Shown: positions 6,440 to 46,621, counted from the first letter of the stretch. The stretch: 64,000 nucleotides of DNA from Oscillospiraceae bacterium (GCA_017435965.1 JAFSEA010000046.1:2974-66973); one strand, 5' to 3'. Numbers and translations: made by a program. The notes: a model not told the origin generated them from the letters alone.

Positions 6440-6447
6440 AAGAAAAG

Positions 6448-14393: not shown

Positions 14394-14409
14394 AATCCAC
14401 CACGCCGTA

Positions 14410-14433: not shown

Positions 14434-14473
14434 TCTCGATTTACGAAAAAATCAACATACAGGAGGGAAAACG

Positions 14474-16033
14474 ATGAGAAAATTCATAGCATTTCTTCTT
14501 GCTTCCGTTATGATACTCGCACTTTGTGCCTGTGGAAAAAATACGGAAATGGATAAAGCCGCAGACCATTCCGGCGCAGACAAGACATTTACCGAAAAAA
14601 CAGTTCTCAAATATCTTGTGCCCTCACACGCAAGCTGGCCTGTACGTGAAGACTGGAAGGTATTTGAGTATATGCAGGAGGGCTCGGGCGCAACTCTCGA
14701 CATTATGGTAGTTCCCATGGGAGATGTTGCAACAAAGCTTCCTCTTATGATATCCGATCCAAAGGAGATGCCCGATCTTCTTGCAGGAGACAATAACAAG
14801 AGTTACAACCAATATTGGGGCGAGGGCATTGCGGCTCTTGACGATTTTGCCGAGTATATGCCAAACTACAATGCGTGGCTTGATTCCCTCTCAGATGATG
14901 AATACTATGTTGCGGTAACAAATCGCAAGGCTGCAGACGGCAAGATCTATTACACACCGGGAACGGGACGTGAGGGCAGAACTCGTATGCGTGCATGGCT
15001 TTATCGCGAAGATATCTTCAAAAAGCACAACCTCAAAGTTCCCGAAACCTTCGACGAGCTTTATAAGGTATGTAAGAAGCTTAAGACCATATATCCCGAT
15101 TCATACCCCTTCAGCACAAGAAGTATCTCATATCTCTTCGATATTTTAGGCTCATCCTTCGATAAATGGTGGGAACACGGTCTCTACTATGATTTCGATG
15201 ACGGCGAATGGCGCTGGGGAGCAACCGAAGACACGGCAAAAGAAGTTCTGGAGTTCTATAAGAGGATGGTAAAGGAAGGTCTTATGCCTGCCGATGCCAT
15301 TTCCCTTGAAGTAACGAAATGGAATGAGTATGTTCTCACAGACCGCACCTTTATTATGCCGCATCTCCAGCTCTATATCGACTACTTCAACAGCCGTGCA
15401 CAGGAAAACAATCCCGAGTTCAAGATTGTCGCCATGAAGCCCCCCGTTGCAAACGAGGATACGGGTGTACCCTTGATGGATCGCGGAGACATTGAGCAGA
15501 TTGGTACAGTTATCGGCGATACGGGCGATCAGGAACGAATGATAAATGCCGCAAAGTTTATCGACTGGATGTATACAGACGAAGCTGTTGAGCTTGTTTC
15601 CTGGGGTAAGGAAGGCGAAACCTTTGAATGGGTCGATAAGGAAAAAGGCGAGAGAAGATATATCACAAATGAAAACAACGACCAGGCGAACACGATGTAT
15701 GGCTTCCAGCTCTACGGAACGTTTATAAAGCTTGACCCCACAGCCGCAAAGGCACTTCAGTCCGAAACAACTCTCGAGTGTGAGGATATAGTTATTGATA
15801 GTGCGCTTCCCTATCACAACCCGGGAATGTGGGTGGCTTTGAATGAAGAGGAGCAGGCGGTCATTGACGAAAAATACACAGCTGTATTAAATTATACAGA
15901 GGAAATGATGACAAAGTTCATGCTTGATCAGGAGCCTATGAGCAAGTATGACAGCTTTGTGAAGGAACTCAAGAAAATGGGTGTTGACGAAATCCTTGAG
16001 GCCTACACATCGGCATACGACAGAGTAAAGTAA
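14474..16033 (+). CDS. Extracellular solute-binding lipoprotein (ABC-type carbohydrate SBP, family 1-like)
   Basis: ATG at 14474 is preceded by AGGAGGG. Lipoprotein signal MRKFIAFLLASVMILALCAC (lipobox LALC). The ~520-aa size and composition are typical of LplA/YtcQ-like sugar SBPs. The ORF-track start at 14423 lacks an RBS. Confidence 0.75.
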   Translation: MRKFIAFLLASVMILALCACGKNTEMDKAADHSGADKTFTEKTVLKYLVPSHASWPVREDWKVFEYMQEGSGATLDIMVVPMGDVATKLPLMISDPKEMPDLLAGDNNKSYNQYWGEGIAALDDFAEYMPNYNAWLDSLSDDEYYVAVTNRKAADGKIYYTPGTGREGRTRMRAWLYREDIFKKHNLKVPETFDELYKVCKKLKTIYPDSYPFSTRSISYLFDILGSSFDKWWEHGLYYDFDDGEWRWGATEDTAKEVLEFYKRMVKEGLMPADAISLEVTKWNEYVLTDRTFIMPHLQLYIDYFNSRAQENNPEFKIVAMKPPVANEDTGVPLMDRGDIEQIGTVIGDTGDQERMINAAKFIDWMYTDEAVELVSWGKEGETFEWVDKEKGERRYITNENNDQANTMYGFQLYGTFIKLDPTAAKALQSETTLECEDIVIDSALPYHNPGMWVALNEEEQAVIDEKYTAVLNYTEEMMTKFMLDQEPMSKYDSFVKELKKMGVDEILEAYTSAYDRVK

Positions 16034-20161: not shown

Positions 20162-20228
20162 ACGGAAATATCCGTTTTTAAAACGGTTTGATATATAAGC
20201 GACTATTATATTTTATGGAGGAGAAATT

Positions 20229-22847
20229 ATGAAAAGATTTATCTCAACATTACTTGTTTTATGTTTGCTTTTCGGCTTTGTGCCTGTAATGGGTGCAAGT
20301 GCAAGCGAGGCAGAAGCTTCAAAAAGCGGAATAACCATAGTTTTTGACTATGCATCACAGTTTCCGATAAAAACCGGCAACGATGCGGCATCGGTTGAAG
20401 CAATGGAGAAATTTACCTTTGATACTTCCCACGGTATCTGGGCTTATGCCGCATATTGGGGCGGCGATGTGCGTTTCAGAAACAAGAGCACCATTCAGCT
20501 CAATTCAAACAATTACTGGGTTGCAATGGAAGTGTATGTTCCCAAAAGCGGATTATATAATATGGAACAGAAATATAATACGTATTCGGGAAGCGGAACT
20601 CTTGAGGTGTATGTAATCCCGAAGGGGGATAACACGACTTACAGCGATTCGCTTATAAACGGTGTTTCGCCCACGCTTTCACAGAGCTGTGACGGTGCAA
20701 ACGGCAACTTTATTGCCCTTGCAGATCCGGCAATAGTGGAAAACGTATATTTTGATGCAGGATATTACTACATAGTCTATAAGGCAAACGGCGGAAGAGC
20801 GATCTTCGGAAACCTCACCCTCAATGGCGGTACGGGAAAAGCTGTTACGGAGATAACATCCGTTTCTGCACCTTCTGAAGTAAAGTCGGGAGCAACCGGT
20901 ACGGTCACAGCCGAGGTTTATTATAGTGATTTAACCTCCGGCAGCGCAGCTGCAGGTGACGTTACATTTGAAAGCAATTCCCCCGATGTTATTGAGATTG
21001 ATGCAACAACAGGTGCATATGTTGCAAAAGCAGGCGGTGTTGCAACCGTTACCGTAAAGTCGGGACTTAAAAGCAAGAGCGTGGAAATAGCTGTTGAAGA
21101 AGTTGAGAAGAGCGGAATAAGTGCAGTTTACAATTGGGGAACGCAGATGAAAACTTCTCCGGAAAATGATCCGGTTCCCCTTAAGGATGCTACTTTCTTA
21201 TCTCAGTTTACATTTGGCAATTCCCATAATTTGTGGGAATACGAAAATCAGCAGTCGTGGTCTACAGTCACATGGAGAGCCGGTAATTTCATCCAGTTCA
21301 ACAGAAGCGGCGGCGGTCTCTGGATGGCATTTGAAATATATGTGCCGAAAAAAGGCATATATACACTTGAACAGAAATACGCACAATTTGGCGGAAGCCA
21401 GTCGGATATCAATGTATATATGTTCCCGAAGACAAGCGGAGTCGCATTTGCACAGAGCGATATGACAGCTGACAGAAAAGTGCTTACCCTTGATTGTAAG
21501 GGTGCAGCCGGTACAGGTCTCCTCGCTCAGTCTCCGGCGAAGAAAGACGTGGAGCTTTCGGAGGGCTATTATTATGTTGCTTATCAGCAGGTAAAAACTG
21601 CCGACGGCACAAACGTCGCTCTCTTTGGTGATCTTACCCTCAACGGCGGAACGGGAAAGGTTGTTACGGAAATAGCATCGGTTTCTGCACCTTCCGAGGT
21701 AAAATCGGGAGCTACAGGTGCTGTCACAGCCGAGGTTTACTATAGTGATCTGACCTCCGGCAGCGCAGCTGCAGGTGATGTTACATTTGAAAGCAATGCC
21801 TCCGATGTTCTTGAGATTGATGCAACAACAGGTGCATACACAGCAAAGGGTGCAGGTGTTGCAACCGTTACGGCGAAGGCTTCTCTTTCAAGCAAAAGCG
21901 CGGAAGTAACGGTTAAGGATACCGCCATGGAAGATGCTTTTGAAGTTACGGTAACTCCTGCAACGGGATATGTTGAATCAACCGTAGCGGGACTTACAGA
22001 CGACAGCACAATTGAGGCGGAAAAGAACTCTGACGGAACATTCACTCTCACAGCCCCAGGAACCAAGGAAAACGCAAAGTTCCTCTACTGGGCAAAGGGA
22101 ATGAGCAGGGATAAGAAGATTATTTCCTTCTCTGCCACACTTTCAGACTATATGCCCGAAGAAAACGGAAAGAATTATCTCATCGCAGTATATGAAGGCG
22201 ATATTTCCGACACAGCGGAATATTACAATGCAAACGGTCAGCGTATTGCAACGGGAACAGAGCCGGCACTTCCTTCAATGGCAGGCTATGGCATATCAAC
22301 AGGTTGGGACAGATACGAAGATACAAATATTTATGTTGCACACTATGACCTCGCAGAGCCTCAAAAGAATATCAATATAACCGTAACCGGCGGTGAGGGA
22401 ACAGGTGTATATGCATACGGTGATACCGTAAACTGCATCGCAACGGGAGAAGGTACTTTCAAGTGCTGGACAAAAACACTTGATGACAATACAACCGAAA
22501 TTGTAAGCGCAGACAGAGAATACAGCTTCAAGGCTTGGGAAAGCTGTACTGTAACTGCAGTATACGGAGAGAACAATTACAGCGGAAGCACGAGAAAGAT
22601 TGTTATAGACAGCTTCTTTGCAGGAAATACACCTGCAGTTATGGCTGAGTTTATCGGCTTTGGAAACAATGTTGTTGAAAAGGGTATTATGTTTGGCGAA
22701 ACAAGAATTGCCATGACAACACCCGGCAATCAGTTTACCGTAACAGGTAGCGCAGGCGAAACTTTCAAGGGTTATGCAATAGTTAAAAACGACACAGAGT
22801 ACAGCCTCATTGTTGATGGTGAGGTAACACTTTCAGACGCAGAATAA
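20229..22847 (+). CDS. Secreted anchorless protein D: 2 unassigned modules + 2 Big_2 domains + C-terminal repeat region (no catalytic core, no SLH)
   Basis: Signal peptide MKRFISTLLVLCLLFGFVPVMGASA. The modules resemble those of protein C. The C-terminal ~300 aa contain F.YW/F.CW motifs reminiscent of Listeria-Bacteroides/InlB B-type repeats. Confidence 0.85.
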   Translation: MKRFISTLLVLCLLFGFVPVMGASASEAEASKSGITIVFDYASQFPIKTGNDAASVEAMEKFTFDTSHGIWAYAAYWGGDVRFRNKSTIQLNSNNYWVAMEVYVPKSGLYNMEQKYNTYSGSGTLEVYVIPKGDNTTYSDSLINGVSPTLSQSCDGANGNFIALADPAIVENVYFDAGYYYIVYKANGGRAIFGNLTLNGGTGKAVTEITSVSAPSEVKSGATGTVTAEVYYSDLTSGSAAAGDVTFESNSPDVIEIDATTGAYVAKAGGVATVTVKSGLKSKSVEIAVEEVEKSGISAVYNWGTQMKTSPENDPVPLKDATFLSQFTFGNSHNLWEYENQQSWSTVTWRAGNFIQFNRSGGGLWMAFEIYVPKKGIYTLEQKYAQFGGSQSDINVYMFPKTSGVAFAQSDMTADRKVLTLDCKGAAGTGLLAQSPAKKDVELSEGYYYVAYQQVKTADGTNVALFGDLTLNGGTGKVVTEIASVSAPSEVKSGATGAVTAEVYYSDLTSGSAAAGDVTFESNASDVLEIDATTGAYTAKGAGVATVTAKASLSSKSAEVTVKDTAMEDAFEVTVTPATGYVESTVAGLTDDSTIEAEKNSDGTFTLTAPGTKENAKFLYWAKGMSRDKKIISFSATLSDYMPEENGKNYLIAVYEGDISDTAEYYNANGQRIATGTEPALPSMAGYGISTGWDRYEDTNIYVAHYDLAEPQKNINITVTGGEGTGVYAYGDTVNCIATGEGTFKCWTKTLDDNTTEIVSADREYSFKAWESCTVTAVYGENNYSGSTRKIVIDSFFAGNTPAVMAEFIGFGNNVVEKGIMFGETRIAMTTPGNQFTVTGSAGETFKGYAIVKNDTEYSLIVDGEVTLSDAE
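20322..21650 (+). repeat. Module-Big_2-module unit homologous to the tandem array in protein C
   Basis: Type-2 module (FTFDTSHGIWAYAAY...FGNLTLNGG), then Big_2, then type-1 module (YNWGTQM...FTFGNSHNLWEYENQQSW...FGDLTLNGG). Includes an 87-nt block (20465-20551) that is almost identical to 25482-25568. Confidence 0.8.
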
Positions 22848-22928: not shown

Positions 22929-23564
22929 ATGAACAGATTTGAGCACAGAGAGGAAAAGTGGGCATTTCCGTTTGTGGAGTATTCAGGCGGAAATGAGGAC
23001 AAAAAGCGACCGCTTATTATCCAGCTTCACGGTGCAGGAGAAAGAGGCTCGGGCGGCGAAGACCTTGAAATAGTTGAAACCTATGGTTTTTCGGAGGTCA
23101 TCCGTGATATAGAAAAAGACCTTGTGGTTGTGATGCCTCAATGCCCAGAGGATACATTCTGGGCGGCGAGGGTTGAATCCATAATCCGTTTTGCAGAGCA
23201 GATAATCAAGGAATATAACATTGATGAAGACAGAGTTTATTTAACGGGACTCAGTATGGGAGGCTACGGAACGTGGTTTACGGCGATGGCACGTCCAGAT
23301 ATGTTTGCGGCGATTGCTCCCGTTTGCGGAGGAGGAATGGCGTGGAATGCAAATGTTCTGAAAATGCCGGTATGGGCATTCCACGGTGCCGATGACATTA
23401 CCGTAAGTCCCACCCAGACAGACGAAATGATTGCAAAGCTCCGTGAGTTTAATGAGGATGTGAAATATACAAGACCTTGCGGTGTCGGTCATAACATATC
23501 CGAAACCTCATATGATGCAGAGCTTCTTGAATGGCTTCTTGAGAAAAGAAGAAACCGCGATTAG
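22929..23564 (+). CDS. Alpha/beta-hydrolase esterase (carboxylesterase/CE1- or S9-like), no signal peptide
   Basis: Contains LIIQLHGAGERGSGG, the nucleophile elbow GLSMGG, and the acid and His motifs HGADD and GVGHN. 211 aa with no N-terminal hydrophobic leader. Confidence 0.75.
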   Translation: MNRFEHREEKWAFPFVEYSGGNEDKKRPLIIQLHGAGERGSGGEDLEIVETYGFSEVIRDIEKDLVVVMPQCPEDTFWAARVESIIRFAEQIIKEYNIDEDRVYLTGLSMGGYGTWFTAMARPDMFAAIAPVCGGGMAWNANVLKMPVWAFHGADDITVSPTQTDEMIAKLREFNEDVKYTRPCGVGHNISETSYDAELLEWLLEKRRNRD

Positions 23565-23636
23565 AATTTTGAAAATAATGTTGTCGATGTTTTTAAGACG
23601 ATTTATGATATAAACGATTTTTATGGAGGAGAAATT

Positions 23637-26600
23637 ATGAAAAGATTTATCTCAACATTGCTCGTTTTATGTATGGTCTGCAGTTTTGTGCCCACAATAG
23701 GTGCAGAACCGGCAGAAGCTTCAAAAAGCGGAATAAGCGTAGTTTATGACTGGGGAACGCAGATGAAAACAGAAACGGAAAACGATCCGGCTCCTCTCAA
23801 GGATGCTGCTTTCCTATCGCAGTTTACATTTGACAGTTCCCATAATTTATGGAAATATGACAGCCAACAGTCCTGGTCTACCGTAACATGGAGATACGGC
23901 AATTACGTTCAGTTCAACAGAAGCGGTGGCGGTCTCTGGATGGTTTTTGAAATTTATGTGCCGAAAACCGGTATGTATACACTTGAACAGAAGTATGCAA
24001 AATTCGGAGGAAGTCAGTCGGATATCAATGTATATATGATTCCGAAAGAAAACGGAGCCGCTTTCACAACAGCCGATATGAAAGATGCCAATAAAGTTCT
24101 CACCCTTGACTGCAAAGGCACAAGCGGCGGCATTGTCGGAGATATTGCAACGACAGATAAAGAACTTTCATCGGGTTATTACTATGTAGCTTATCTGCAG
24201 GTAAAAACTGCCGATGGCACAAATGTTGCACTCTTTGGTGACCTCACCCTTAACGGCGGTGAGGGTAAAGCCGTTACGGAAATAACATCCGTTTCTGCAC
24301 CGGCCGAAGTGAAGGTGGGAGCAACGGGAAGTGTGACAGCCGAGGTTTATTATAGTGATCTGACCTCCGGCAGCGCAACTGCCGGTGATGTTACATATGA
24401 AAGTGACAATACCGATGTTCTTGAAATCAACGAAGCAACAGGTGCATATACTGCCAAAGCTTCGGGCGTTGCAACCGTTACCGCAAAGTCGGGCATTCTC
24501 CAAAAGAGCATTGAAATAACTGTGGGTGATGTTGAAAGAAGCGGAATAAGCGCAGTTTATGACTGGGGAAAGCAGATGAATCCGGGATCGGACAATGGTT
24601 CTCTCAAGGACACTACCTTCTTGTCACAATTTACCTTTGACCGTTCACACAATTTGTGGAAATATGACAGTCAGCAGTCATGGGCAACGGTCACATGGCG
24701 ATACGGTGATTATGTTCAGTTCAACAGAGGCGGTGGCGGTCTCTGGATGGTCTTTGAAATATATGTACCCAAGAAAGGTGCATATACACTCCGGCAGAAA
24801 TATGCAAAGTTTGGCGGAAGTCAGTCGGATATCAATGTGTATATGATTCCGAAAGAAAACGGAGCCGCTTTCACAACAGCCGATATGAAAGATGCCAATA
24901 AAGTTCTCACCCTTGATTGTAAAGGCACAAGCGGCGGCATTACGGGAGATACTGAAACAACAGTCAAAGAGCTTCGGGAAGGCAATTATTATGTAGCCTA
25001 TCTGCAGGTGAAAACTGCCGATGGCACAAACGTTGCCCTCTTTGGGGATCTTACCCTCAACGGAGGTTCGGGAAAAGTTGCGACATCAATAAACTCCGTA
25101 TCCATACCGTCGGATGTGAGAATGGGAACTACGGGAACTGCAACAGCCGAGGTCTATTACAGCGACCTTACTTCGGGACCTGGAGACAATGTTACATTTG
25201 AGAGCAGCGCTCCCGATGTTCTTGAAATCAATGCAACAACAGGTGCATACACAGCAAAGGCAGGCGGCGTTGCCACCGTTACCGCAACTGTTGGCAACAT
25301 AAGCAAAAGCATTGAAGTAAAAGTAGGAAATGTTGAAAAAAGCGGAATAAGCGTTGTTTATAATTATTCGGCACAGATGCCCCTGAGAACGGGAAACGAC
25401 ACGGCGAGCGTTTCGGATATGGAAAAGTTCACCTTTGATTCCTCTCACGGACTCTGGGCTTATGCCGCATATTCCGGAAGCGATGTGCGTTTCAGAAACA
25501 AGAGCACCATTCAGCTCAATTCAAACAATTATTGGGTTGCAATGGAAGGCTATGTTCCCAAAAGCGGAGCATATAACATCGAGCAGAAATACAGTACATA
25601 TCCTGGAAGCGGAACTCTTGATGTGTATATAATTCCAAAGGGTGATAACACTTCATACAATGCATCGCTCATAAACGGTGTTTCGCCCACACTTTCACAG
25701 AACTGTGACGGTGAAAACGGAAACTTTGTTGCACTTTCTACACCTGCAATAAAGGAAAACGTATATCTTGATGCAGGATATTATTATATAGTTTATAAAT
25801 CAAACGGCGGAAGGGCAATATTCGGAAACCTCACCCTCAACGGCGGCGAAGGACGTGAGCTTGTTGATTTTGAAGTCGTAAAGCCCGATTTTATCGCCGA
25901 GGGAGAAGCGGGAGAAGTCTCTGTTGTTGCTTATTACAGCGATGCAACAAGCGAAAACTACGCAGGTGAAGTATCGTATGCAACGGAAGACGGAGACATT
26001 CTGAATATTGACGAAAACGGTGCATATGAGGCAATTTCTTCGGGAACTGCCGTTGTAACCGTAGAAGTCGGCGGACTTAAAAAGGATGTCACCTTTGATA
26101 TAAGAGGAAAGAGCGGAATAACTGTAATCTATGATTATGCAAAAGAGTTGCCGCTTTCAAGCTCAAGACAAACAACAGAGTTTGACCTTGGACTTTTCTC
26201 CTTTGAAAACTCAAAGGGACTCTGGGCATATGCAGGACATAACGGAGGCGATATACGCTTCAGAAACGGCAAAATATTCCAGCTTGCCGAAAAGAATTAT
26301 TGGTTTGTAATGGAAATATATGTTCCGAAGAGTGGTATGTATAATCTTGAGCAGGAATATACCACATATCCGGGCAGCGGAACATTGGATGTATATGTGC
26401 TTCCGAAGGGTGAAAATACTTCCTACAGCGACACACTTATAAAGGAAAAAGCCCCCACCTTCTCACAGAGCTGTGAGGGAGCTGACAAAGCATTCACAGC
26501 CCTTTCTGAACCGTCAATAAAGGAAAATGTGTATTTCGACAACGGATATTATTATATAGTTTATAAATCAAACGGCGGCAGAGCAATGTTCGGAAACCTC

Positions 26601-29600
26601 ACCCTCAATGGCGGTGGGGAGCGTGAGCTTGCCACAATTTCCTTTGACATTCCCGAAATTATGGTAAAGGGCGATGGCGGACTTATCGCACCCATAGGAA
26701 CAATGAGTGACGGTACTGCCTTCTCCGTAAAAGACGGATATATTTTCTCAAGCGATAACGAAGATGTGCTTTATGTAAACCGTGAAACGGGAGAATATAC
26801 TGCAAGTGGTGCAGGTGTTGCAACGGTTACCGTTTCTTATGATATCGGAAGAATGATAACCTCCGAGAAAAAGGTTGAGGTTATTGAAGGCGCGGCGGCA
26901 GGCAAGCTGTTTATCTATGATTTTGCAGAAGCAATCCCCGAATATGGAACAGATAAGGCATTTTCCGAGCTTTCAAGCGATGATGCGAGCGGTGCATATC
27001 AATTTGCATCGGCAAGTCAGAGTGGAGTGGGTACTCAGATTCAATACAGAGACACATTCATAAATCTTGGAAAAGGTGAATGGTTCGCCTTTGAAATTGA
27101 CATCCCCGTATCGGGAATATATTCGATAAATCAGAGATATGGCAAATACAACAACTCAACGGGTGCTCTTGAAGCATACATTATTCCGAAAAACGGAAAC
27201 TTTGATATCAGCACCATCAATAACCTTGATGCAACCGGCACACAGAGCTGTTTTGACGGTGATGCATCCGAATATTCGGAAAGTGCAACAGTTTCCGACT
27301 TCGGAGTAGATTTCTTCGAGGCTGGCAAATACTATGTTGTTTACAAGGCTAAATATGGTAGAGCAATGTTTGGAAATCTCATACTTGACGGAAGAAACAC
27401 ATTCAAGAAGCTCATTGTATCTGCTCCGAAGAGTATAGGCGTTGGTGAGCGTGTTGAAATAGGCATAGAGGCAAAGTCTCTTGATATGACAACAATCGAC
27501 ATAGAAACCCTCAATTTGAAGAGTCTTTCATCTGTTCAATTTGCCCTTACAACAGAAATCGGTGACAACAACGAATGTTTTGTCTATGGTGAAAATGAGG
27601 GTGCTTCCGAGATTACAATCACGGCAGATGACGGTGAATTCTCCGATTCAAAGACAGTTGAGATTAAAGTAATTGACTCAAGTGAAGTTCAAAATGTCGA
27701 AATTGATATTTCCGATTATATCTATGTGAGAGCTTCCGAAAACATCAAATTTATCGCTCATATGGGAAGCGGAAAGACTATAGAAATACCGGATGAGACC
27801 TATGAAATCATAGCATCGGAGCCTGAAGGTGCAGGTGTGGTTTCGGGAAATTCCATTACCGGAAATGCAGAAGGAAAGATAACTTTAAAGGCAAGTGCAG
27901 ATTTCAAGGGTGAAATGAGAACTGCCGAAAAGGAAATAGACATTCTTGAGGGAATGTCAAAGCAGGCTCCCACATACTACACCTATGAGATGCGCGAAAA
28001 CGTTAAAAAGAATACCGAAAAGTATTCCTGGGTACGAAGTGAAGTAAATGCGAAAAAAGCAGATGCCGACATCGCTTTAGAGAACCTTGACGCATATTAC
28101 GATATGATAATCGGTGAGGGAATTCCGAGATCAAGAAGTATGAAGACGAAAGGTCATCCCGAAATTGATAATTGTCCTTACTGCGGAGAATATTATCAAT
28201 TTGCGTGGAAATATGATTTTCTCAATCGTCCGTGGAAGGCTCAGTGCCCGGGTTGCAAACGTTTCTTCCCTTCAAATGATTTTGAAAGCTTTATGAAGCT
28301 GGGACTTGATGAACAGAAATATTACGATGTTGACAGAGCAAGACAAGCACATCACGAGATGCTTTTTCACAAGGGCGGAGAAGAATGTACCTGTGAGAAA
28401 CCCGAAACGCCCTATTCCGAAGAGTGGTATGAGTTCTACGGATATGGAAATGAGGAAGGATATCTCTACAACAAGCTTTATAAAGAAGTCGGAAGCGAAA
28501 ATTCAAGTGTGGAGCTCCTTCCCAGCGAAAAGGCCGAGCGCTGGTGCGTTGATGACGGCTTCGGATACTACACAGGAAGAGTTTTCAATACAGGCGTAAA
28601 GGAAATGTATTGCCCGATAGCATTATATAACTATTCTTTGTTACCGGGAATTTCAAACAGAATAAGCTCCCTCGGAATGGCTTATGTATACACGGGAGAG
28701 ACAAAATACGGCGTTGCGGCGGCAATACTTTTAGACCGACTGGCAGACGTTTACCCGAGCCATGATGCCGATTCCTTTGACACCGGTGCATTCCAGATAA
28801 CAGATGGAGGAACGGGAAAAGGAAAAATACAGGGTCTTATTCAGGATGCATATTTCGCAAAGGGCTTTGCTCTGCGTATCGATGAGGTGTTCCCCATCCT
28901 CAAGGATGAGGCCGCCTGCAATCAGGTTATTCAGTATCTGAGCCCGAAAGCAGATGCAATGGGTCTTGAAAATAAGAAGAAAACCGCAGAGGATATATGG
29001 AGAAACTGGGAAGAGAATATTCTTCTTGAGAATTTTGAGGCGGCAAAGCTTTATAAGGTCGGAGGTAACTTCGGCACATACCAGGCTGCCATTGCGGCAA
29101 CTGCGCTTGTTCTTGACAAGAAGCCCGAATCCGATGAGATGATGGATTGGTGCTTCAGAAGCGGTGGAGTTGTTTATCCCCAGAACAGCGAAACGGGAAC
29201 CTACTACAACACAGGTGGAAACATCAATGCCCAGATTGTTGATGAAGTTGACCGTGACGGTCTGGGAACAGAATCCTCCGCAAGCTACAACTGTATGTGG
29301 TGGGAAAAGCTTATAAATATTGCAGAAATGTCTGCAAAATACGGTGATCCGAAATATGATCTTTATCAGAATGTAAAGTTCCTCAAAATGCTGGAGGCAT
29401 TTTCCGATCTCGTAATGACAAACTCCCACACAGTTCATATCGGTGACTGTTCTTCGGGTATCGCATCAGCTACACTCCTCGGAAATGTAAAGCTTCTCTC
29501 CACGATATTCCCGTATGTAAAATACACACCTATGGCTGAAAAGATTGCAAAGTATATAGCATTATATTACAACTACAATCTTGACGGCTTCAGAGAAAGT

Positions 29601-32165
29601 GTTTTTGCGGAAAATCCGGAAGGTCTCGGCGAGGAGATTATGAGCTTTGTCGAAAATGAAGACGGATTCACGGAAAGCAAAATGCTTGCAGGATATGGCT
29701 TCTCGGTGCTTCGTGCAGGTAAGAATTATAAATCCGTGAGCGATTCAACCGAAAATAATAACCTCCGTGACTTCTGGATTTACTTTGGTGGTGCTCAGTC
29801 TCACAGACACCTTGATGCACTCAATCTCGGTATCGAGGCATATGGTCTCAACATAGCTCCCGACCTTGCATACCCCGTAGATGCCACAGTAAATGCAGAG
29901 CGTATGCAATGGACGAGCACAACCCTTTCTCATAACACCGTAACCGTTGACGGACAGCAGCAGAAGAACATCACTCTCCCCGGAAAACCGTTACATTTTG
30001 ATGATTCGGGCATGGTAAAGGTTCTTGATACATCTGTTCCGGAAGTATATGAGGCAACATCGGAATACAGACGAACGGTTGTTATGATTGAAGCGGACGA
30101 CGACATAAGCTATGGCGTTGACTTCTTCCGTGTCGTTGGCGGAAATGAGCATATCTACAGCTTCCACGCACTCAGCGGTGACGATGCCTCCGTTGTTGAC
30201 GGACTCACACTTGTTCCGCAGGTTGATGAGCCGCAGAGTGACTGGACAAGTGAAGACACAAGCTCCTATGCAGGTGCTGACATCAAATACGGTCCTGACC
30301 CGAATCCCATGAAAGACTACAACTACGTCACATATTATCCGAGAGGAACAACGTGGCTCCGCGATGTACGTCGCTCCGATGATGTTGTAAATGACTTTAC
30401 GGCTGATTTCAAGATAACAGACTATAACCGTGTGATAAAGGACAACAAGGATATTCACTTAAGCCTCACAATGGTAAACGATTTTGAGCTTTCTGAGGTT
30501 GCATTTGCAAAGGGTAAAGTTCCTGAAAGAGCAACCAACAAGAATATTCCTTCACACCTTGAGTATATGCTCGCAAAGCGTGAAGGAAAGAACCTCGACA
30601 GCTTGTTTACCGCAGTATATCAGCCGTATAAGAAGGAAGCATATATATCATCGGTTGAACAGATTGTCCCTGAGATAATCAGCGGAACAGAGAAAAACGG
30701 CGATATCGCAAAGGCTGTAAAGGTTACCCACACAAACGGCAGGGTTGATTATATCATCTATGCCACAAACGATGAAGTAACGTATCAGCTTGAAAACAAC
30801 GAAGCTCTGACATTCAGCGGTTTTGTGGGCGTATGGACATTAAATGCAAACCGTGAGATTACATATTCCTATGTCCTTGGCGGAGAAGGCGATGTAACAG
30901 GAAAGATTTCAGGCTTCACGGAAGGGCTCTCCACCAATAACTACATTGATATAACACCGGATAAGGCAGTTTCCCCTGAAAGTCTTGCAGGAAAGTATAT
31001 CTTTATTGAGCACGATGGAGTGGGAAATGCCGCATATGAAATACTTTCCGCAGAAAAGAAAGCAGATGGAGATATCCGTCTTGATATCGGAACAGTAACA
31101 ACAGTTCGCAAGTATATGGATGCAAAGGATTTCGACAAGGGTTATGAATATAACATTGCAAAGAAACAGAAGTTTGTGATTTCAATGCCTGTCATATCGG
31201 ATTCGGCTCCCGTATTTGAAACATATGACGGTGGCGTTGCCGGCGTAAATAGTATATACGAGAGAAAGTTTACGGCAACAAGCTCACTGTCGGGAACAGA
31301 AATTGAGTATATCGGAAGAACTCTCCCGAGAGGTGCCACCATTGATTCGGAAACGGGACTCTTCACATGGAAACCCGCTTCTTCGCAGGTTGGAGATAAC
31401 CACGTTGCCATAACTGCAAGAGATTCTGACGGACGTGAAACAACCATACATATCACCATAACGGTTTACGGTTCAACCTCCGGCGGAAGCATCGGCGGTG
31501 CAGGTAGCGGTGGAACAGGCACGACCACAATACCTCCGGCTGAAAAGGAAGAAGAAAAAGAACCTTCAACCGATGTGGAAAACGGCGGTTCCGACGTTCC
31601 GCAAACTCCGGATTCGGAAAATGTCCGCTTCATAGACCTCGCCTCCCACGCATGGGCCGAGGATGCAATCAACTCTCTTGCAGATGAAGGCATTATAAAG
31701 GGCACAAGCGAAAATACCTTCTCTCCCGGAAACAACATAACAAGAGCAGACTTTGCAATTCTTCTTGTGCGTGCATTCAAGCTTTCTTCCGAAAACACAG
31801 AGAACTTCTCTGATGTCAAGGCTTCCGATTACTTTGCAAGTGAGCTTGCAATAGCACGAAATGAAGGACTTGTCGGCGGAATCGGTGATAATAAGTATGC
31901 ACCATACAACAACATCACCCGTCAGGATATGATGGTTATAGTTTACCGTGCACTTAAATCAATGGACAAACTTGTAGGGGTGGATATCATCCGCCCGGAA
32001 AACGAGGATTTTGAAGATGTAGCAGACTATGCAAAGGAAGCGGTTTCGGTCCTCATAGGTGCAGGTTTAGTCAACGGAAAGAACGGGAAAATCGCTCCCA
32101 CCGACTTCACAACCCGCGCAGAAGTTGCGGTACTTATCAAACGTATTCTCGAATATACCAAGTAA
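23637..32165 (+). CDS. Giant SLH-anchored heparinase II/III-type surface protein, paralog C (2842 aa)
   Basis: RBS GGAGGAG; signal peptide MKRFISTLLVLCMVCSFVPTIGA. Five unassigned modules alternate with Ig-like domains. Core carries CPYC...CPGC, HRHLDALNLG, PDLAYP and SHNTVTVDGQQQ. Ends with a He_PIG-like domain, a Gly-rich linker and three SLH repeats. Confidence 0.9.
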   Translation: MKRFISTLLVLCMVCSFVPTIGAEPAEASKSGISVVYDWGTQMKTETENDPAPLKDAAFLSQFTFDSSHNLWKYDSQQSWSTVTWRYGNYVQFNRSGGGLWMVFEIYVPKTGMYTLEQKYAKFGGSQSDINVYMIPKENGAAFTTADMKDANKVLTLDCKGTSGGIVGDIATTDKELSSGYYYVAYLQVKTADGTNVALFGDLTLNGGEGKAVTEITSVSAPAEVKVGATGSVTAEVYYSDLTSGSATAGDVTYESDNTDVLEINEATGAYTAKASGVATVTAKSGILQKSIEITVGDVERSGISAVYDWGKQMNPGSDNGSLKDTTFLSQFTFDRSHNLWKYDSQQSWATVTWRYGDYVQFNRGGGGLWMVFEIYVPKKGAYTLRQKYAKFGGSQSDINVYMIPKENGAAFTTADMKDANKVLTLDCKGTSGGITGDTETTVKELREGNYYVAYLQVKTADGTNVALFGDLTLNGGSGKVATSINSVSIPSDVRMGTTGTATAEVYYSDLTSGPGDNVTFESSAPDVLEINATTGAYTAKAGGVATVTATVGNISKSIEVKVGNVEKSGISVVYNYSAQMPLRTGNDTASVSDMEKFTFDSSHGLWAYAAYSGSDVRFRNKSTIQLNSNNYWVAMEGYVPKSGAYNIEQKYSTYPGSGTLDVYIIPKGDNTSYNASLINGVSPTLSQNCDGENGNFVALSTPAIKENVYLDAGYYYIVYKSNGGRAIFGNLTLNGGEGRELVDFEVVKPDFIAEGEAGEVSVVAYYSDATSENYAGEVSYATEDGDILNIDENGAYEAISSGTAVVTVEVGGLKKDVTFDIRGKSGITVIYDYAKELPLSSSRQTTEFDLGLFSFENSKGLWAYAGHNGGDIRFRNGKIFQLAEKNYWFVMEIYVPKSGMYNLEQEYTTYPGSGTLDVYVLPKGENTSYSDTLIKEKAPTFSQSCEGADKAFTALSEPSIKENVYFDNGYYYIVYKSNGGRAMFGNLTLNGGGERELATISFDIPEIMVKGDGGLIAPIGTMSDGTAFSVKDGYIFSSDNEDVLYVNRETGEYTASGAGVATVTVSYDIGRMITSEKKVEVIEGAAAGKLFIYDFAEAIPEYGTDKAFSELSSDDASGAYQFASASQSGVGTQIQYRDTFINLGKGEWFAFEIDIPVSGIYSINQRYGKYNNSTGALEAYIIPKNGNFDISTINNLDATGTQSCFDGDASEYSESATVSDFGVDFFEAGKYYVVYKAKYGRAMFGNLILDGRNTFKKLIVSAPKSIGVGERVEIGIEAKSLDMTTIDIETLNLKSLSSVQFALTTEIGDNNECFVYGENEGASEITITADDGEFSDSKTVEIKVIDSSEVQNVEIDISDYIYVRASENIKFIAHMGSGKTIEIPDETYEIIASEPEGAGVVSGNSITGNAEGKITLKASADFKGEMRTAEKEIDILEGMSKQAPTYYTYEMRENVKKNTEKYSWVRSEVNAKKADADIALENLDAYYDMIIGEGIPRSRSMKTKGHPEIDNCPYCGEYYQFAWKYDFLNRPWKAQCPGCKRFFPSNDFESFMKLGLDEQKYYDVDRARQAHHEMLFHKGGEECTCEKPETPYSEEWYEFYGYGNEEGYLYNKLYKEVGSENSSVELLPSEKAERWCVDDGFGYYTGRVFNTGVKEMYCPIALYNYSLLPGISNRISSLGMAYVYTGETKYGVAAAILLDRLADVYPSHDADSFDTGAFQITDGGTGKGKIQGLIQDAYFAKGFALRIDEVFPILKDEAACNQVIQYLSPKADAMGLENKKKTAEDIWRNWEENILLENFEAAKLYKVGGNFGTYQAAIAATALVLDKKPESDEMMDWCFRSGGVVYPQNSETGTYYNTGGNINAQIVDEVDRDGLGTESSASYNCMWWEKLINIAEMSAKYGDPKYDLYQNVKFLKMLEAFSDLVMTNSHTVHIGDCSSGIASATLLGNVKLLSTIFPYVKYTPMAEKIAKYIALYYNYNLDGFRESVFAENPEGLGEEIMSFVENEDGFTESKMLAGYGFSVLRAGKNYKSVSDSTENNNLRDFWIYFGGAQSHRHLDALNLGIEAYGLNIAPDLAYPVDATVNAERMQWTSTTLSHNTVTVDGQQQKNITLPGKPLHFDDSGMVKVLDTSVPEVYEATSEYRRTVVMIEADDDISYGVDFFRVVGGNEHIYSFHALSGDDASVVDGLTLVPQVDEPQSDWTSEDTSSYAGADIKYGPDPNPMKDYNYVTYYPRGTTWLRDVRRSDDVVNDFTADFKITDYNRVIKDNKDIHLSLTMVNDFELSEVAFAKGKVPERATNKNIPSHLEYMLAKREGKNLDSLFTAVYQPYKKEAYISSVEQIVPEIISGTEKNGDIAKAVKVTHTNGRVDYIIYATNDEVTYQLENNEALTFSGFVGVWTLNANREITYSYVLGGEGDVTGKISGFTEGLSTNNYIDITPDKAVSPESLAGKYIFIEHDGVGNAAYEILSAEKKADGDIRLDIGTVTTVRKYMDAKDFDKGYEYNIAKKQKFVISMPVISDSAPVFETYDGGVAGVNSIYERKFTATSSLSGTEIEYIGRTLPRGATIDSETGLFTWKPASSQVGDNHVAITARDSDGRETTIHITITVYGSTSGGSIGGAGSGGTGTTTIPPAEKEEEKEPSTDVENGGSDVPQTPDSENVRFIDLASHAWAEDAINSLADEGIIKGTSENTFSPGNNITRADFAILLVRAFKLSSENTENFSDVKASDYFASELAIARNEGLVGGIGDNKYAPYNNITRQDMMVIVYRALKSMDKLVGVDIIRPENEDFEDVADYAKEAVSVLIGAGLVNGKNGKIAPTDFTTRAEVAVLIKRILEYTK
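23724..27393 (+). repeat. Tandem array of five (unassigned ~190-aa module + Ig-like domain) units, period ~770-815 nt
   Basis: Unit starts are marked by KSGI[ST]V[VI]Y at about 23724, 24538, 25338 and 26107, with a diverged fifth at about 26893. Each module ends with FGNLTLNGG, FGDLTLNGG or FGNLILDG. Confidence 0.85.
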
Positions 32166-35847: not shown

Positions 35848-35916
35848 TTAAACATAGTTGTTCGGGGAAAAGTTTGTAGTATTCACAAAACTGATTTCAT
35901 ACAAAAATGAGGATTG

Positions 35917-37707
35917 ATGATGAAGCTGAGATATAAAATATACAAAGAAAAAGTATACGGATGCTTTACCGGCAAAAGCGTAGGTGGTACATTGGGGATG
36001 CCGTTTGAAGGACAATTGGACGTAGACTCGGTTACATATTATGATCCTGTACCAACCGAAATGGTGCCTAACGACGACTTGGATTTGCAGGTGGTCAATC
36101 TTGAAACGCTTCTTCGCACAGGTTTTCCGGTTTCCCGTCATCATATCGGCGAAATCTGGTTGCACCATATGGAAGATAATGCCCCTGATGAATATAGTGT
36201 CGGCATAGCAAACCATAAGCTCGGCATCAGAGGACCGCTTTCGGGGCAGTATCGCAATAAGTTCCACAGCGGTATGGGTGCCGCGATTCGCAGTGAACTT
36301 TGGGCGTGTGTTGCTCCTGCGAATCCAAAACTTGCAGCACTTCTCGCAAGAGAAGATGCCTGCACTGATCACACAGGTGACGGCATATATACGGAAATGT
36401 TTCTCGCTGCTGTTGAAAGTCAGGCATTTATAGAGAACGATTTGGAAAAACTCATCCAAACGGGACTTGAGTTTGTGGACAAAGAAAGCAAGCTTTATAA
36501 AGTCTTTGGAGATGTTATTCGTTTGTATAAAGAAACGAAGGATGTCTATGCAGTAAAAGAGTATATATTGAGACAATATCCTTGTGATAACTGGACAGAT
36601 GTAACGATAAATGTTTCGTTTATTCTTTTGGCATTAATAGCTTCCGATGGCGACTTCGACAAAGCAATTTGCACAGCTACTTCATTGGGATATGATGCTG
36701 ATTGTACTGCCGCTACAGTCGGTGCAATTTTTGGAATTATGAAACCTGACAGTATTGACGAAAAGTGGACAAATCCGATAGGCGATGCTTTGGTTCTTTC
36801 GCCTTGCATTGTTAATATGCATAGCTTTGATACAATAAGTGAGTTTTGCGAAGTGGTAATGTCTGTTGCGAATTATGCACAAGAGTATTATCAAACAGGA
36901 ATACAGTTTGAAGGCGCTGACGGTTTTGCTGATATACGTCTTGCAGATAGCTGGACGGATGATTACAAAAGTCTTTATGATTGGAAAATCGGAGCAAAGG
37001 AATCCCTCCTGACGGGCTTGCCTTGCCTGATGAGCTTGGTCTATCCGGAAGAGGTTGCTGCCGAACCGGGTAAAAGTAAGGAATACACCTTGAAATTATG
37101 CGCAGATAAAGACATATCGGGTTCTGTTAAATTGTTTGTGCCGGAAAAGTGGCAGGTATCTTCGGAAACGTTCTCGTTCAATCTTTCAAAAGGTGAAACA
37201 AAAGAAATTTCGTTCTTTGTTAAACCTGATGCAGAACAAGGGTTGAGATGTCAGAAAAATATTTTAACGATGCGTTTTTGCATAAATGGTGTTACTTTTG
37301 TGCAAGAGGCAGGACTTCCTGTTTCAACTCCGTGGATGGTTACTGCTGCCGATGGCAGAGAGTACGTATATGAAGCAACGTCCATTTACTTCCCGGTTCC
37401 GTCGGGTGAGTACAGATATAAAACGCGCGTAAACTCACCGATACAAAAAAATGTTCGTATGGCATGCAACGGAACAAGACCGTTTATCGTTAAATTGAAT
37501 GGTGAAACAGTGTATGAAGGCGATGGTTCTTTCTATGTACCTGCATTTCATCGCGGAGATACCTGGACAAACGTTGTGTTGAATACCGGAGCATCAAATG
37601 AGATAGAAGTTGTTTTCCCTGAATATAAAGAGGGCGAGTTCTTCTTTGGTTTCGGAACAACCTTCGGATGTGCAACATGGTTAGATACGATTGAAAGAAC
37701 GCTCTGA
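35917..37707 (+). CDS. ADP-ribosylglycohydrolase (ARH) family protein with ~250-aa C-terminal extension
   Basis: ARH motifs are present: GCFTGKSVGGTLGMPFEG, NDDLDLQ and LGYDADCTAATVGAIFG. The extra C-terminal region after about aa 340 looks beta-rich. Start is ambiguous among TTG 35914, ATG 35917 and ATG 35920. Confidence 0.75.
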   Translation: MMKLRYKIYKEKVYGCFTGKSVGGTLGMPFEGQLDVDSVTYYDPVPTEMVPNDDLDLQVVNLETLLRTGFPVSRHHIGEIWLHHMEDNAPDEYSVGIANHKLGIRGPLSGQYRNKFHSGMGAAIRSELWACVAPANPKLAALLAREDACTDHTGDGIYTEMFLAAVESQAFIENDLEKLIQTGLEFVDKESKLYKVFGDVIRLYKETKDVYAVKEYILRQYPCDNWTDVTINVSFILLALIASDGDFDKAICTATSLGYDADCTAATVGAIFGIMKPDSIDEKWTNPIGDALVLSPCIVNMHSFDTISEFCEVVMSVANYAQEYYQTGIQFEGADGFADIRLADSWTDDYKSLYDWKIGAKESLLTGLPCLMSLVYPEEVAAEPGKSKEYTLKLCADKDISGSVKLFVPEKWQVSSETFSFNLSKGETKEISFFVKPDAEQGLRCQKNILTMRFCINGVTFVQEAGLPVSTPWMVTAADGREYVYEATSIYFPVPSGEYRYKTRVNSPIQKNVRMACNGTRPFIVKLNGETVYEGDGSFYVPAFHRGDTWTNVVLNTGASNEIEVVFPEYKEGEFFFGFGTTFGCATWLDTIERTL

Positions 37708-37779: not shown

Positions 37780-38673
37780 ATGGAAACAAGATGGTTACAT
37801 ACAACAAGTGAAGATTTTAAAAAGCTCCGTGAAGAATCGGAAAGAGTGTGCGTTATTCCTATGGGATGCCTTGAAAAACATTCCGTTTATCTTCCTCTGG
37901 GCACCGATGTTATCATAGCAAATAATATGGCATATGATGCATCTCAGCTTGAAACAGTATGTGTTTTCCCTGATTTCGCATTCGGTGATGTTCCCTGCGG
38001 TGACCATGCGGCTCGCCCTGACGGAACAATCGCCCTTGATGTTCGCATACAGATGCTTTTGCTGGAGAATCTTTGTGGCGAGATTTCCGCAAACGGCTTT
38101 AATAAAATTCTCGTTGTAAATGGTCACGGCGGAAACCTTCCGTGGCTCCAGACCTTTGCAAGAAATCTCGGTTGCAAGCCTCATAAATATGTTTTTGCAT
38201 ATGTGGATGTTCCCGATACAGTTCCGCATCAGATGGCAGAGTTCCTCCTTGAAAAAGGAAGCGGTTCTATTCCGGAGCTTACGGCGGAGGATGAAGAGCT
38301 TATAATCAAATACTACAAGGCTGATATGCAGCTTGGCCACGCCTGCATGCAGGAGGCGGCATACACTATGGAATATGCCCCCGAAAGCGTACATCTTGAC
38401 CGCCTTGGAAGAGAAGACGGCTCTCCGAGAGACCTACCCGAGCTTCAGAAGCTTCTTGACCTTAAAGTGCGCCTTTCCATGGGCGGTTGGGATCATTTAT
38501 ACCCCGACTGGTATGCAGGGGATGACCCATATGGACTCAATGAGCGTATAGCACGCGCCGCAACAAGAATTGCCACGGAAAAGCTTGCAGAGGTCTATAA
38601 GGCATTTAAGGAAGATAAGTTCCTTCTCGGACGTGCAAAAGAAAACTACAAGGACAAAACTTGGTTTGAATAA
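37780..38673 (+). CDS. Creatininase-family amidohydrolase
   Basis: RBS AAGGAGG. Family signature IPMGCLEKHSVYLPLGTDVIIA ... DGTIAL ... ILVVNGHGGN. Confidence 0.8.
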   Translation: METRWLHTTSEDFKKLREESERVCVIPMGCLEKHSVYLPLGTDVIIANNMAYDASQLETVCVFPDFAFGDVPCGDHAARPDGTIALDVRIQMLLLENLCGEISANGFNKILVVNGHGGNLPWLQTFARNLGCKPHKYVFAYVDVPDTVPHQMAEFLLEKGSGSIPELTAEDEELIIKYYKADMQLGHACMQEAAYTMEYAPESVHLDRLGREDGSPRDLPELQKLLDLKVRLSMGGWDHLYPDWYAGDDPYGLNERIARAATRIATEKLAEVYKAFKEDKFLLGRAKENYKDKTWFE

Positions 38674-38697: not shown

Positions 38698-40032
38698 ATG
38701 AAAACAGGTTTTTCAAAAGTTTGCATCAATCCGCCTTACGGTGCGCCGATGGTGGGTTATTATGAAGCTCGTTTTGTTAAGGGAATTGAGCAGAATCTTT
38801 ATGCAAGGGCTGTTGCGTTTGATGACGGATGCAAAAAGGCTGTTGTTATTGCCGTTGATGTTATCGGCCTTACCTTGGATTTCTGCAATATGGCAAAAGA
38901 TGCTATTGCCGCTTCAACGGGAATTGAGAAAGATGCAATTTTTATAAACTTCTCACATACACACACAGGCCCTCTTGTGGGAGAAGACTTCGCCTCGGAA
39001 ACAAAAAGCTCCGATGCCTATAATGATTTTCTCATCACAGGTATCCGTGATGCGGCAATATATGCACTTGACGATCTTTGTGAGTCGAGATTTGAGGTAG
39101 GGGATGCCGAGGCAAAGAACATCTCATTTATCCGCCGTTACAGAATGAAAGACGGCGGAGTTGTGACAAACCCCGGTGCTTATAACGAGAATATTGACCA
39201 TCCGCTGGGGACTCCCGATGAAACCGTGAAGCTCGTTAAAATAGTGAGAGACGGTAGCGACGATATATTCATAATCAATTTCGGAACACACGCCGATGCG
39301 GTAGGCGGAGAATATATAAACTCGGATTATATGGGATATGCGTGTTCCACCCTTGAAAAGGCAATCCCCGGAATAAATTGCATTTTCCTTCTCGGTCCTC
39401 AGGGAGATGTCAATCACATCAACATCAACCCAACAAAAGGCGAATGGAATATTCTCGAGGATAAAGAAGCCGTGTGTCCACATAGTGTGCGACACTCTCA
39501 GCATATGGGAAGAGTTATTGCAGGTGCAGTCCTTTCGGTATGCTCCGTTACGGAGGAGATAAACGCCGATAGGATTTCGTATGGTGTTAAAGAAGTACAG
39601 CTTCCCTCATACCGGGAAAATGACAAGCTTGATGAAGCAAGAAGAATCTGGACACTCCACGAAAGCGGAAAAGATGACGAGCTTCCATACAAAGGAATGG
39701 AGCTCACAACGGTTATTGCGGAAGCAAAGCGAATTGTCGGGCTTGAAAACGGTCCGGAATCTTTCCCGTTCCTTATTTCGGCGTTAAGAATAGGCGAGCT
39801 TGTTTTTGCCGGAATCGGCGGTGAGCCGTTTACGGAAATAGGTGTAAGGATATCGGATGCATCGCCCTTTAAAAACACAATAGTATGTTGCCTTACAAAC
39901 AATAGTGGAAGCTATATTCCAACAAAAAGCGCATACGATGAAGGTGGATATGAGGCAAGAGCCTCTGTTCTTATGCCCGGCGGTGATGATATCATCGTTG
40001 AAGGTGTGGTCGAGCTTTTAAAAACACTTTAG
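38698..40032 (+). CDS. Neutral/alkaline ceramidase-N-terminal-like hydrolase, copy 1
   Basis: The N-terminus KTGFSKVCINPPYGAPMVGYY...LYARAVAFDDG matches the ceramidase_alk-type lead motif. Paralog of 42047-43378. No signal peptide. Confidence 0.65.
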   Translation: MKTGFSKVCINPPYGAPMVGYYEARFVKGIEQNLYARAVAFDDGCKKAVVIAVDVIGLTLDFCNMAKDAIAASTGIEKDAIFINFSHTHTGPLVGEDFASETKSSDAYNDFLITGIRDAAIYALDDLCESRFEVGDAEAKNISFIRRYRMKDGGVVTNPGAYNENIDHPLGTPDETVKLVKIVRDGSDDIFIINFGTHADAVGGEYINSDYMGYACSTLEKAIPGINCIFLLGPQGDVNHININPTKGEWNILEDKEAVCPHSVRHSQHMGRVIAGAVLSVCSVTEEINADRISYGVKEVQLPSYRENDKLDEARRIWTLHESGKDDELPYKGMELTTVIAEAKRIVGLENGPESFPFLISALRIGELVFAGIGGEPFTEIGVRISDASPFKNTIVCCLTNNSGSYIPTKSAYDEGGYEARASVLMPGGDDIIVEGVVELLKTL

Positions 40033-46612: not shown

Positions 46613-46621
46613 GAGATATAT

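Follow-up and report, generated by a model that had tools for sequence, protein, structure and literature searches.

A tandem array of candidate carbohydrate-binding modules in a giant SLH-domain protein of an Oscillospiraceae bacterium

Among the closest described systems are the glycanases of Gram-positive bacteria that carry several carbohydrate-binding modules (CBMs) and are anchored by S-layer homology (SLH) domains, and the non-catalytic surface glycan-binding proteins encoded in polysaccharide utilization loci (PULs). New CBM families of the beta-jelly-roll fold class are described regularly. The DNA analyzed here is a stretch of 64,000 nucleotides from Oscillospiraceae bacterium (GCA_017435965.1 JAFSEA010000046.1:2974-66973; hereafter, the window), in which two neighboring genes code for proteins, named C and D, that carry multiple copies of the same module. 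Like the systems mentioned above, protein C combines a signal peptide, binding-type modules, a core, and C-terminal SLH domains; genes for an ATP-binding cassette (ABC) transporter binding protein and for AraC regulators adjoin, and a separate non-catalytic protein, D, has the same module types. Unlike those systems, both the binding-type module and the core lie outside curated families, and the modules are unusual in their number (five plus two) and in the conserved order of their subtypes along the protein. The module is a genuine domain family of uncultured gut-type Clostridium that is new with respect to Pfam, NCBIfam, and the sequences in PDB.

The module family in proteins C and D

Copies of the module were located by motif search, MAFFT alignment, and a hidden Markov model (HMM) scan of the six-frame translation. 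Exactly seven strong copies were found in the window, with domain E-values between 1e-62 and 1e-81 (coordinates in Table 1). An earlier note on this DNA, made from the sequence alone, had described five units of module plus immunoglobulin (Ig)-like domain at the beginning of protein C and two further copies in protein D. The five units (C1 to C5) are present, essentially where the note had placed them, and the other two copies were found as D1 and D2. The period of ~770-815 nt agreed with the measured 768-819 nt: start-to-start spacing is 807-819 nt in type-1-led units, 786 nt from D1 to D2, 768 nt in type-2 units, and 786 nt from C4 to C5. The size of about 190 amino acids did not hold, as the copies have lengths of 166-180 amino acids. 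The note also missed an eighth, diverged copy located in protein B. Two profiles were used in the searches, one built from the seven window copies (A1) and another from 32 diverse family members (A2), and the copy in protein B is visible only to the latter (hmmsearch, independent E-values [iE] of 2.6e-20 and 3.5e-18, profile positions 26-162).

The proposed division into two clear subtypes and a diverged fifth copy was borne out. Type 1 (C1, C2, and D2) and type 2 (C3, C4, and D1) show 70-86% and 60-80% mutual identity, respectively, and C5 shares 27-37% identity with all other copies. The order of the subtypes is also conserved in orthologues. In two orthologous giant proteins, P0001 and L001, the same succession is seen (type 1, C3-like, C4-like, C5-like), and their modules are 65-71% identical to the positional counterpart versus 28-41% to other types (70-71% for the positional orthologues of C4, and 69% for those of C5 in both proteins). 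When paralogous copies were compared, the ratio of nonsynonymous to synonymous substitutions (dN/dS) was 0.11-0.30 and dS was 0.6-1.1, which reflects purifying selection. These values indicate old, maintained units rather than the product of a fresh duplication or of chance similarity. A recent-duplication artefact or an assembly repeat was ruled out by these dS and dN/dS values and by the same order being found in orthologues.

The residues that are near-invariant across the family (Y7, P79, G82, Y84, G150, Y152, G164, and G171) are all Gly, Pro, or Tyr. Several of those in or beside predicted strands look like fold determinants. The type-specific motifs rich in Trp and Tyr occupy the N-terminal extension as well as strands and coils of the module's N-terminal half. 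The net charge, isoelectric point, and aromatic content of the modules were uninformative on the ligand.

An exhaustive hmmsearch of 1.84 billion (1.84e9) cluster representatives identified 259 module-bearing representatives at E<=1e-3 and 108 at E<=1e-10. Word-index homologue searches with module C3 or with the 32-member alignment gave zero matches, which, given the 259 found by the exhaustive search, was taken to reflect a limit of the index and not absence of homologues. The best 150 proteins contain 414 module instances; most have two to six copies and nine have one. In the 60 proteins listed out of these 150, the copies are spaced ~270-300 amino acids apart and the first module is near the N-terminus in all but a few. 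Two size classes were apparent, one of ~800-1000 amino acids like D (40 of the 150) and another of giants like C, mostly of 2000-3600 amino acids. The ~1040-amino-acid core of C is shared by 51 of the 67 module-bearing proteins of at least 1500 amino acids, and its tail, composed of He_PIG and SLH domains, by 37 of the 150. A Pfam scan of 12 module-bearing proteins that lack this core detected no catalytic domain of a carbohydrate-active enzyme (CAZyme).

Five related loci were retrieved with profile A1, all of them from metagenome-assembled genomes (MAGs) of Eubacteriales or Oscillospiraceae. In three, L003, L004, and L005, a gene that codes for a D-like protein of ~790-960 amino acids is directly upstream of the giant gene (Table 1). 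The window differs in that an esterase gene separates D from C. Downstream of the giant, L001 and L004 code for a homologue of the ABC transporter binding protein seen in the window.

Predicted fold and relationship to known modules

Scanning three single window modules against Pfam produced nothing above gathering score, in keeping with the earlier note, which had matched the pattern to no family. The best sub-threshold matches of window modules were DUF6600 (1.4e-3), Golvesin_C (PF25275; 2.3e-3, obtained with C5), and DUF7591 (8.8e-3). Golvesin_C reached at best 18.4 bits versus a gathering score of 31.6, and 2 of the 32 diverse members matched it at E<=0.1. CBM_35 (PF16990) was absent at E<=10 from the three modules scanned. 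Single modules had no match in NCBIfam or among PDB sequences. When the 32 diverse members were compared to Pfam, CBM_35 was touched by three (E<=0.1, best 0.021) and CBM_6 (PF03422) by one (E 0.012), all below threshold; the CBM_35 scores, found in this minority of members only, were 10-17 bits versus a gathering score of 28. The PPC pre-peptidase domain was weakly touched by 3 of the 32. A search of the literature on SLH plus heparinase-type lyases, Golvesin_C, and new CBM or polysaccharide lyase (PL) families found nothing on this type of protein.

In profile searches of PDB sequences, profile A1 matched the glycoside hydrolase family 31 (GH31) enzyme 5x7o (E 8.3e-5, chain residues 881-909 and 993-1041). 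The best matches of profile A2 among 177,635 sequences were 5x7o (2.4e-3), the cycloisomaltooligosaccharide glucanotransferase 3wnl/3wnk (4e-3), and the endo-mannanase 5C module 2bgo (0.029). We take 5x7o and 3wnk to bear CBM35 modules at the matched residues, and 2bgo to be a CBM35 itself. The A2 matches are centered on a 'VPxxGxYxL..RYan' strand, and the shared signal consists of a 'V-P-x-x-G-x-Y-x-L...Y' strand-turn-strand followed by a later 'aGeYyvvyk' strand. SH3 matches obtained with A1 (E 0.1-1.5) were judged to be noise because they were lost with the broader profile. The structure 7ehg, which is discussed below, was missing from the searches with A2 (E<=1) and A1 (E<=10).

The module is predicted to be a discrete beta-jelly-roll domain. 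An AlphaFold2 (AF2) model based on the seven window copies had a confidence score (pLDDT) of 80, and the model of C1 with the 32 diverse members reached a pLDDT of 91.1 and a predicted TM-score (pTM) of 0.89. The latter consists almost wholly of beta-strands; two short helices occur within the N-terminal extension, and further short ones at residues ~115-122. Both the sharp repeat boundaries and the AF2 single-domain model support a contiguous sequence with a discrete, autonomous fold. In line with the glycan-binding role proposed in the earlier note, comparison of the model with PDB by Foldseek pointed to a lectin- or CBM-like fold. The best match was MiXBM 7ehg, with TM-scores of 0.53 on the query (TMq) and 0.68 on the target (TMt) and an E-value of 2e-6. 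It was followed by Eph ligand-binding domains, CBM6 (2cdp, 2cdo, 1uxz, and 5fui), CBM35 2w1w, 3wnk, CBM70 4d0q, and meprin entries. All matches listed had a probability of 1.00, E-values of 2e-6 to 7e-5, TMq of ~0.39-0.53, and 11-23% identity. The values for 2w1w, the only entry labeled CBM35 in the search output (TMq 0.45, TMt 0.58), and for 3wnk (TMq 0.44) denote similarity of fold class only.

Three groups of known modules are close enough to be compared in detail. The module shares with CBM35 the beta-jelly-roll fold class (2w1w, 3wnk), the strand-turn-strand motif 'V-P-x-x-G-x-Y-x-L ... Y-a-x' and the late 'aGxYxv.f' strand, as well as its condition of non-catalytic appendage to a polysaccharide-degrading type of enzyme. 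In contrast, it is longer than the 121 positions of the Pfam CBM_35 model, ~40 residues at its N-terminus ('SGIxVVYDW...') precede the part that matches best, and it occurs in 2-6-fold arrays that alternate with Big_2 domains. CBM6 and CBM70 are of the same fold class (TMq 0.44-0.49), and 4d0q, the hyaluronan-binding module of pneumococcal hyaluronate lyase, is also found on a lyase, but there is no significant sequence match and the size and loop lengths differ. MiXBM 7ehg is the xanthan-binding module of the PL8 xanthan lyase of Microbacterium sp. XT11, and the modules of this lyase, MXL, were described as CBM84 (PMC10881899). It is the nearest structural neighbor and sits on a polysaccharide lyase with an anionic polymer as its substrate (PMC10881899), but the identity is 13-15%, its length is 133-136 amino acids versus ~170, and the root-mean-square deviation over the alignment is ~6.5-6.9 Å.

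When the module was compared by hhalign with a shorter module present in proteins A and B (described below), a stretch of ~16 residues remained unaligned, which is the place where the AF2 model has the short helices at ~115-122. We read the module as a remote branch, at the level of a family, within the CBM6/35-like jelly-roll class; it has an extension at the N-terminus and an insertion, both absent from the shorter module. The claim that it belongs to no known family thus stood in part: no Pfam family matched above threshold and none matched in NCBIfam, but the profile matches to CBM35-type sequences and the sub-threshold CBM_35 and CBM_6 matches place it as a new branch of a known class rather than leaving it unplaceable.

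The core of protein C and a proposed role for the array

Protein C consists of a signal peptide, the five module-Ig units, a further Ig-like region, the ~1040-amino-acid core, a He_PIG domain, a Gly/Ser/Thr linker, and three SLH domains. The Pfam matches were SLH (5.6e-27), Big_2 (2.8e-12), He_PIG (6.7e-8), and Hepar_II_III_C (8e-5, below gathering score). The Ig spacers were also recovered as DNA repeat families (there labeled D2, D4, and D5). Pfam has no family for the Ig-like region that connects array and core; its C-terminal part has homologues in the corresponding regions of proteins A and B of the window (iE 8.7e-15 and 6.1e-19) and was matched by 52 of the 150 database hits. The core is common to A and B as well (iE 6e-183 and 9e-196), where the Hepar_II_III_C matches, 1.6e-9 and 3.1e-10, respectively, are above gathering score. 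The three are SLH-anchored paralogues with cores that are 39-42% identical, the same tail, and different sets of N-terminal modules.

A profile built from the three cores (A3) matched in PDB the PL17 alginate lyases 9irq (3.7e-5) and 7bjt (9.3e-5), Uly1040 (1.4e-3), and the oligo alginate lyase 3a0o (0.53), the last presumably of family PL15. The matches cover part of the length, namely the Hepar_II_III_C beta-sandwich region with its conserved His and Asp motifs. Uly1040 is an ulvan lyase of family PL40 (PMC12915356). A single-sequence search of PDB with the core produced no match. Based on these distant PL17 and PL40 matches, the core is plausibly a lyase of the heparinase II/III-like superfamily that would act on a uronate-containing polymer and would lie outside the families with structures. 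It opens with a CxxC-(20-25 residues)-CPxC motif (amino acids 1513-1540 of C, 746-778 of A, and 1311-1343 of B), in which the four Cys are invariant in the three paralogues and conserved in 51 of the 52 database relatives that have the core. This motif, a putative zinc ribbon, is unusual in a secreted lyase-type enzyme.

Protein D consists of a signal peptide, D1, an Ig-like domain, D2, a second Ig-like domain, and a tail of ~310 amino acids; neither SLH nor catalytic domains were detected in it. The D and C genes are alike through the ribosome-binding site and signal peptide (20211-20297 versus 23619-23705, 86% nucleotide identity), and the database entries for both proteins come from an Oscillospiraceae MAG.

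The explanation that we consider probable is that the modules form a CBM6/35-like family, that the array captures glycans multivalently ahead of the core, and that D is a binding partner. Here, carbohydrate binding, the ligand, a division of labor among subtypes, and the lyase activity of the core are inferred. The C-terminal SLH domains would fix protein C to the cell wall, and since the core is central and the array is at the N-terminus, the latter would be distal to the cell. The array, with at least three conserved subtypes separated by Big_2 spacers, most likely captures a complex polysaccharide in a multivalent manner and feeds it to the core, and the different subtypes probably recognize different features of the same polymer. 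Protein D, with one type 1 and one type 2 module, would most likely be a non-catalytic binding partner for the same substrate. The oligosaccharide products could be imported through the ABC system whose binding protein is encoded beside such giants.

Several observations weigh against this explanation. No match attains the curated threshold of any family. The link to CBM35 consists of E-values of 1e-2 to 1e-5 that are concentrated on one strand-turn-strand motif. The TM-scores (0.45-0.68) of the predicted model are those of a shared fold class, not of a shared function, and in Foldseek the CBMs score no better than meprin entries or the protein-binding Eph ligand-binding domains. The assignment of the core is weak, as Hepar_II_III_C exceeds its threshold in A and B and not in C. 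In addition, the classical hallmark of a CBM, its presence on diverse CAZymes, is missing, since the Pfam scan of proteins without the core of C found the module on no other recognized glycoside hydrolase or lyase domain.

This last fact could also be accounted for if the modules were structural and, together with the Big_2 domains, built a long stalk, rigid or extensible, to push the core past the S-layer or capsule, without having a ligand of their own. The strict alternation of module and Ig-like domain, with a copy number that varies from two to six, resembles the stalks of surface proteins, and the family-wide conservation of Gly, Pro, and Tyr is what fold determinants would look like. 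However, the array is N-terminal, beyond the core, and one would look for a spacer on the side of the SLH anchor. The two modules of protein D have nothing to project, and the conservation of each subtype at its position fits distinct specificities better than interchangeable spacers. A stalk is therefore unlikely, even if marginally less so than the other alternatives.

Next in order, and improbable too, is that CAZy has already numbered the CBM family, the module being a divergent member of it that escaped our searches because the family lacks a Pfam model or solved structure or because its members have diverged too far. This alternative disputes only the novelty and is compatible with glycan capture by the array. 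CAZy defines many CBM families, our comparison covered Pfam, NCBIfam, and PDB, and the CBM35 and CBM6 signals are weak but consistent. Nonetheless, these signals are far under the gathering thresholds and come from few members, identity to the best-matching solved structures is 11-23%, with TMq<=0.53, the literature on new lyase-borne CBM families yielded nothing resembling this protein, and the NCBI pipeline calls D a 'hypothetical protein'. Least likely of the three is an Eph-like role in protein-protein or cell-cell adhesion (assembly of D onto C, S-layer binding, or adherence to host or microbial surfaces), to which the Eph and meprin matches at E-values equal to those of CBMs, the PPC matches, and the conserved gene pair with shared module types, which would fit a heteromeric assembly, lend some weight, but the sequence-level matches are to 5x7o, 3wnk/3wnl, and 2bgo, which we take to be CBM35-bearing, and not to Eph or MAM domains, and the locus, with three anchored heparinase II/III-like proteins, an ABC binding protein, AraC regulators, and sugar-modifying enzymes, is like those for polysaccharide utilization.

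Within the glycan-capture explanation, a more specific proposal can be put forward tentatively. The module may found a new CAZy CBM family confined to uncultured Oscillospiraceae and related Eubacteriales, in which at least three subtypes would read distinct epitopes of one complex polysaccharide, probably a uronic-acid-containing one. Its partners would be an unclassified Cys4 heparinase II/III-like lyase family and protein D, and the system would be a Gram-positive counterpart of the binding-protein/enzyme pairs of Bacteroidota. If binding is confirmed, one CBM family and probably a lyase family would be added from uncultured gut- or rumen-type Clostridia, organisms with many giant surface proteins that have no annotated function. 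The modules could then serve as probes to find the substrate of a locus that recurs and codes for three paralogous, cell-anchored enzymes, and the conserved order of subtypes makes this a tractable case for the cooperation of tandem, non-identical CBMs on a heterogeneous polymer. The result is useful more than surprising, and it does not challenge the accepted working of such enzymes.

Features of the locus and neighboring genes

Table 1. Coordinates of the modules, proteins, and other features. Positions are those of the window, except for the last three rows, which refer to the related loci named; aa, amino acids; ORF, open reading frame.
Feature	Position	Strand	Remarks
Protein C, 2842 aa	23637-32165	+	ORF; NCBI MBQ7119357.1, 'S-layer homology domain-containing protein'
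Module C1, type 1	23727-24260	+	aa 31-208 of C; sequence used for AF2 model
Big_2 Ig-like spacer after C1	24261-24539	+	Pfam Big_2 at aa 212-296
Module C2, type 1	24540-25067	+	aa 302-477 of C; 86% identity to C1; dN/dS versus C1 0.11
Module C3, type 2	25341-25847	+	aa 569-737 of C; 80% identity to D1
Module C4, type 2, own sub-branch	26112-26615	+	aa 826-993 of C; 61% identity to C3
Module C5, diverged third type	26898-27395	+	aa 1088-1253 of C
Equivalent Ig-like spacers	25068-25340, 25848-26111, 26616-26897	+	Ig_NUP210_16th at aa 509-554, Big-like at aa 779-818
Further Ig-like region, array to core	27396-28133	+	aa 1254-1499 of C
Heparinase II/III-like core, ~1040 aa	28134-31256	+	aa 1500-2540 of C
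Cys4 motif of C	28173-28256		opens the core
He_PIG Ig domain	31293-31466	+	Pfam
Three SLH domains, cell-wall anchor	31611-32162	+	aa ~2659-2842 of C; Pfam; NCBIfam alignment aa 2659-2833
Protein D, 872 aa	20229-22847	+	ORF; NCBI MBQ7119355.1, 'hypothetical protein'
Module D1, type 2	20325-20831	+	aa 33-201 of D
Module D2, type 1	21111-21650	+	aa 295-474 of D
C-terminal tail of D	21906-22844		aa 560-872 of D
Esterase gene between D and C	22929-23564		
Protein A	137-6439		three-paralogue set with B and C
Protein B	6507-14393		three-paralogue set with A and C
Eighth, diverged module copy	6645-7025 (approx.)	+	aa 47-173 of B, directly after the signal peptide
Second module, in A	722-1237		aa 196-367 of A
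Second module, in B	7395-7928		aa 297-474 of B
Second module, in B	8823-9341		aa 773-945 of B
Accessory genes downstream of C	38698-40032, 40088-42031 (-), 42047-43378 (-), 35914-37707, 37780-38673		
Glycyl-radical and 4Fe-4S genes	44348-47410, 51331-52248		
WxL-interacting-type protein, 787 aa	57393-59756	-	
L003, D-like gene / giant	6188-9025 / 9029-12898		
L004, D-like gene / giant	2175-5051 / 5055-12266		
L005, D-like gene / giant	4370-6739 / 6799-14583		

The N-terminal regions of A and B include a second unassigned module of the beta-sandwich type, the shorter module mentioned above, with the pattern '...GYY..S..GG.W....DYS.FVN..YAGD...LNTVYL.EG...I.FR.RKK'. It matched Pfam CBM_35 only at E-values of 0.0065 and 0.043, and the main module family by hhalign with a probability of 68% (E 4.7e-5), and it had no match among PDB sequences. 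The ORF of protein A has GTG as its start codon and no signal peptide, and its beginning is similar to an internal segment of B. It may be a truncated gene, or one whose true start is disrupted close to the edge of the window.

The C-terminal tail of protein D was assigned to no family in the Pfam scan. It is common to 12 of the 40 proteins of 800-1000 amino acids and to 17 of the 150 matches overall. By eye, its repeated '...F.GW/YW...' motifs resemble Listeria-Bacteroides repeats (Flg_new/InlB B-repeat), and a related protein, P0037, has a Flg_new match.

Besides the ABC transporter binding protein, the AraC regulators, and the esterase, the locus includes genes for a GFO/IDH/MocA oxidoreductase, a sugar-isomerase-like TIM barrel, and an amidohydrolase, and it looks like a polysaccharide utilization setting. 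Just downstream of C there are genes for two neutral/alkaline ceramidase-like proteins, a DUF4838 protein, an ADP-ribosylglycohydrolase-family protein, and a creatininase-family protein, a set that is unusual for a polysaccharide locus. A protein with a WxL-interacting-protein host-binding domain (PF11797, E 6.4e-10) appears to be unrelated to the module array. Also encoded in the window are a glycyl-radical enzyme (PFL-like plus Gly_radical), its radical-SAM activase, and then a ROK kinase; a 4Fe-4S protein of the nitrite/sulfite reductase type follows ~4 kb further on. These genes might reflect a metabolism of organosulfonates or of an unusual sugar tied to the locus.

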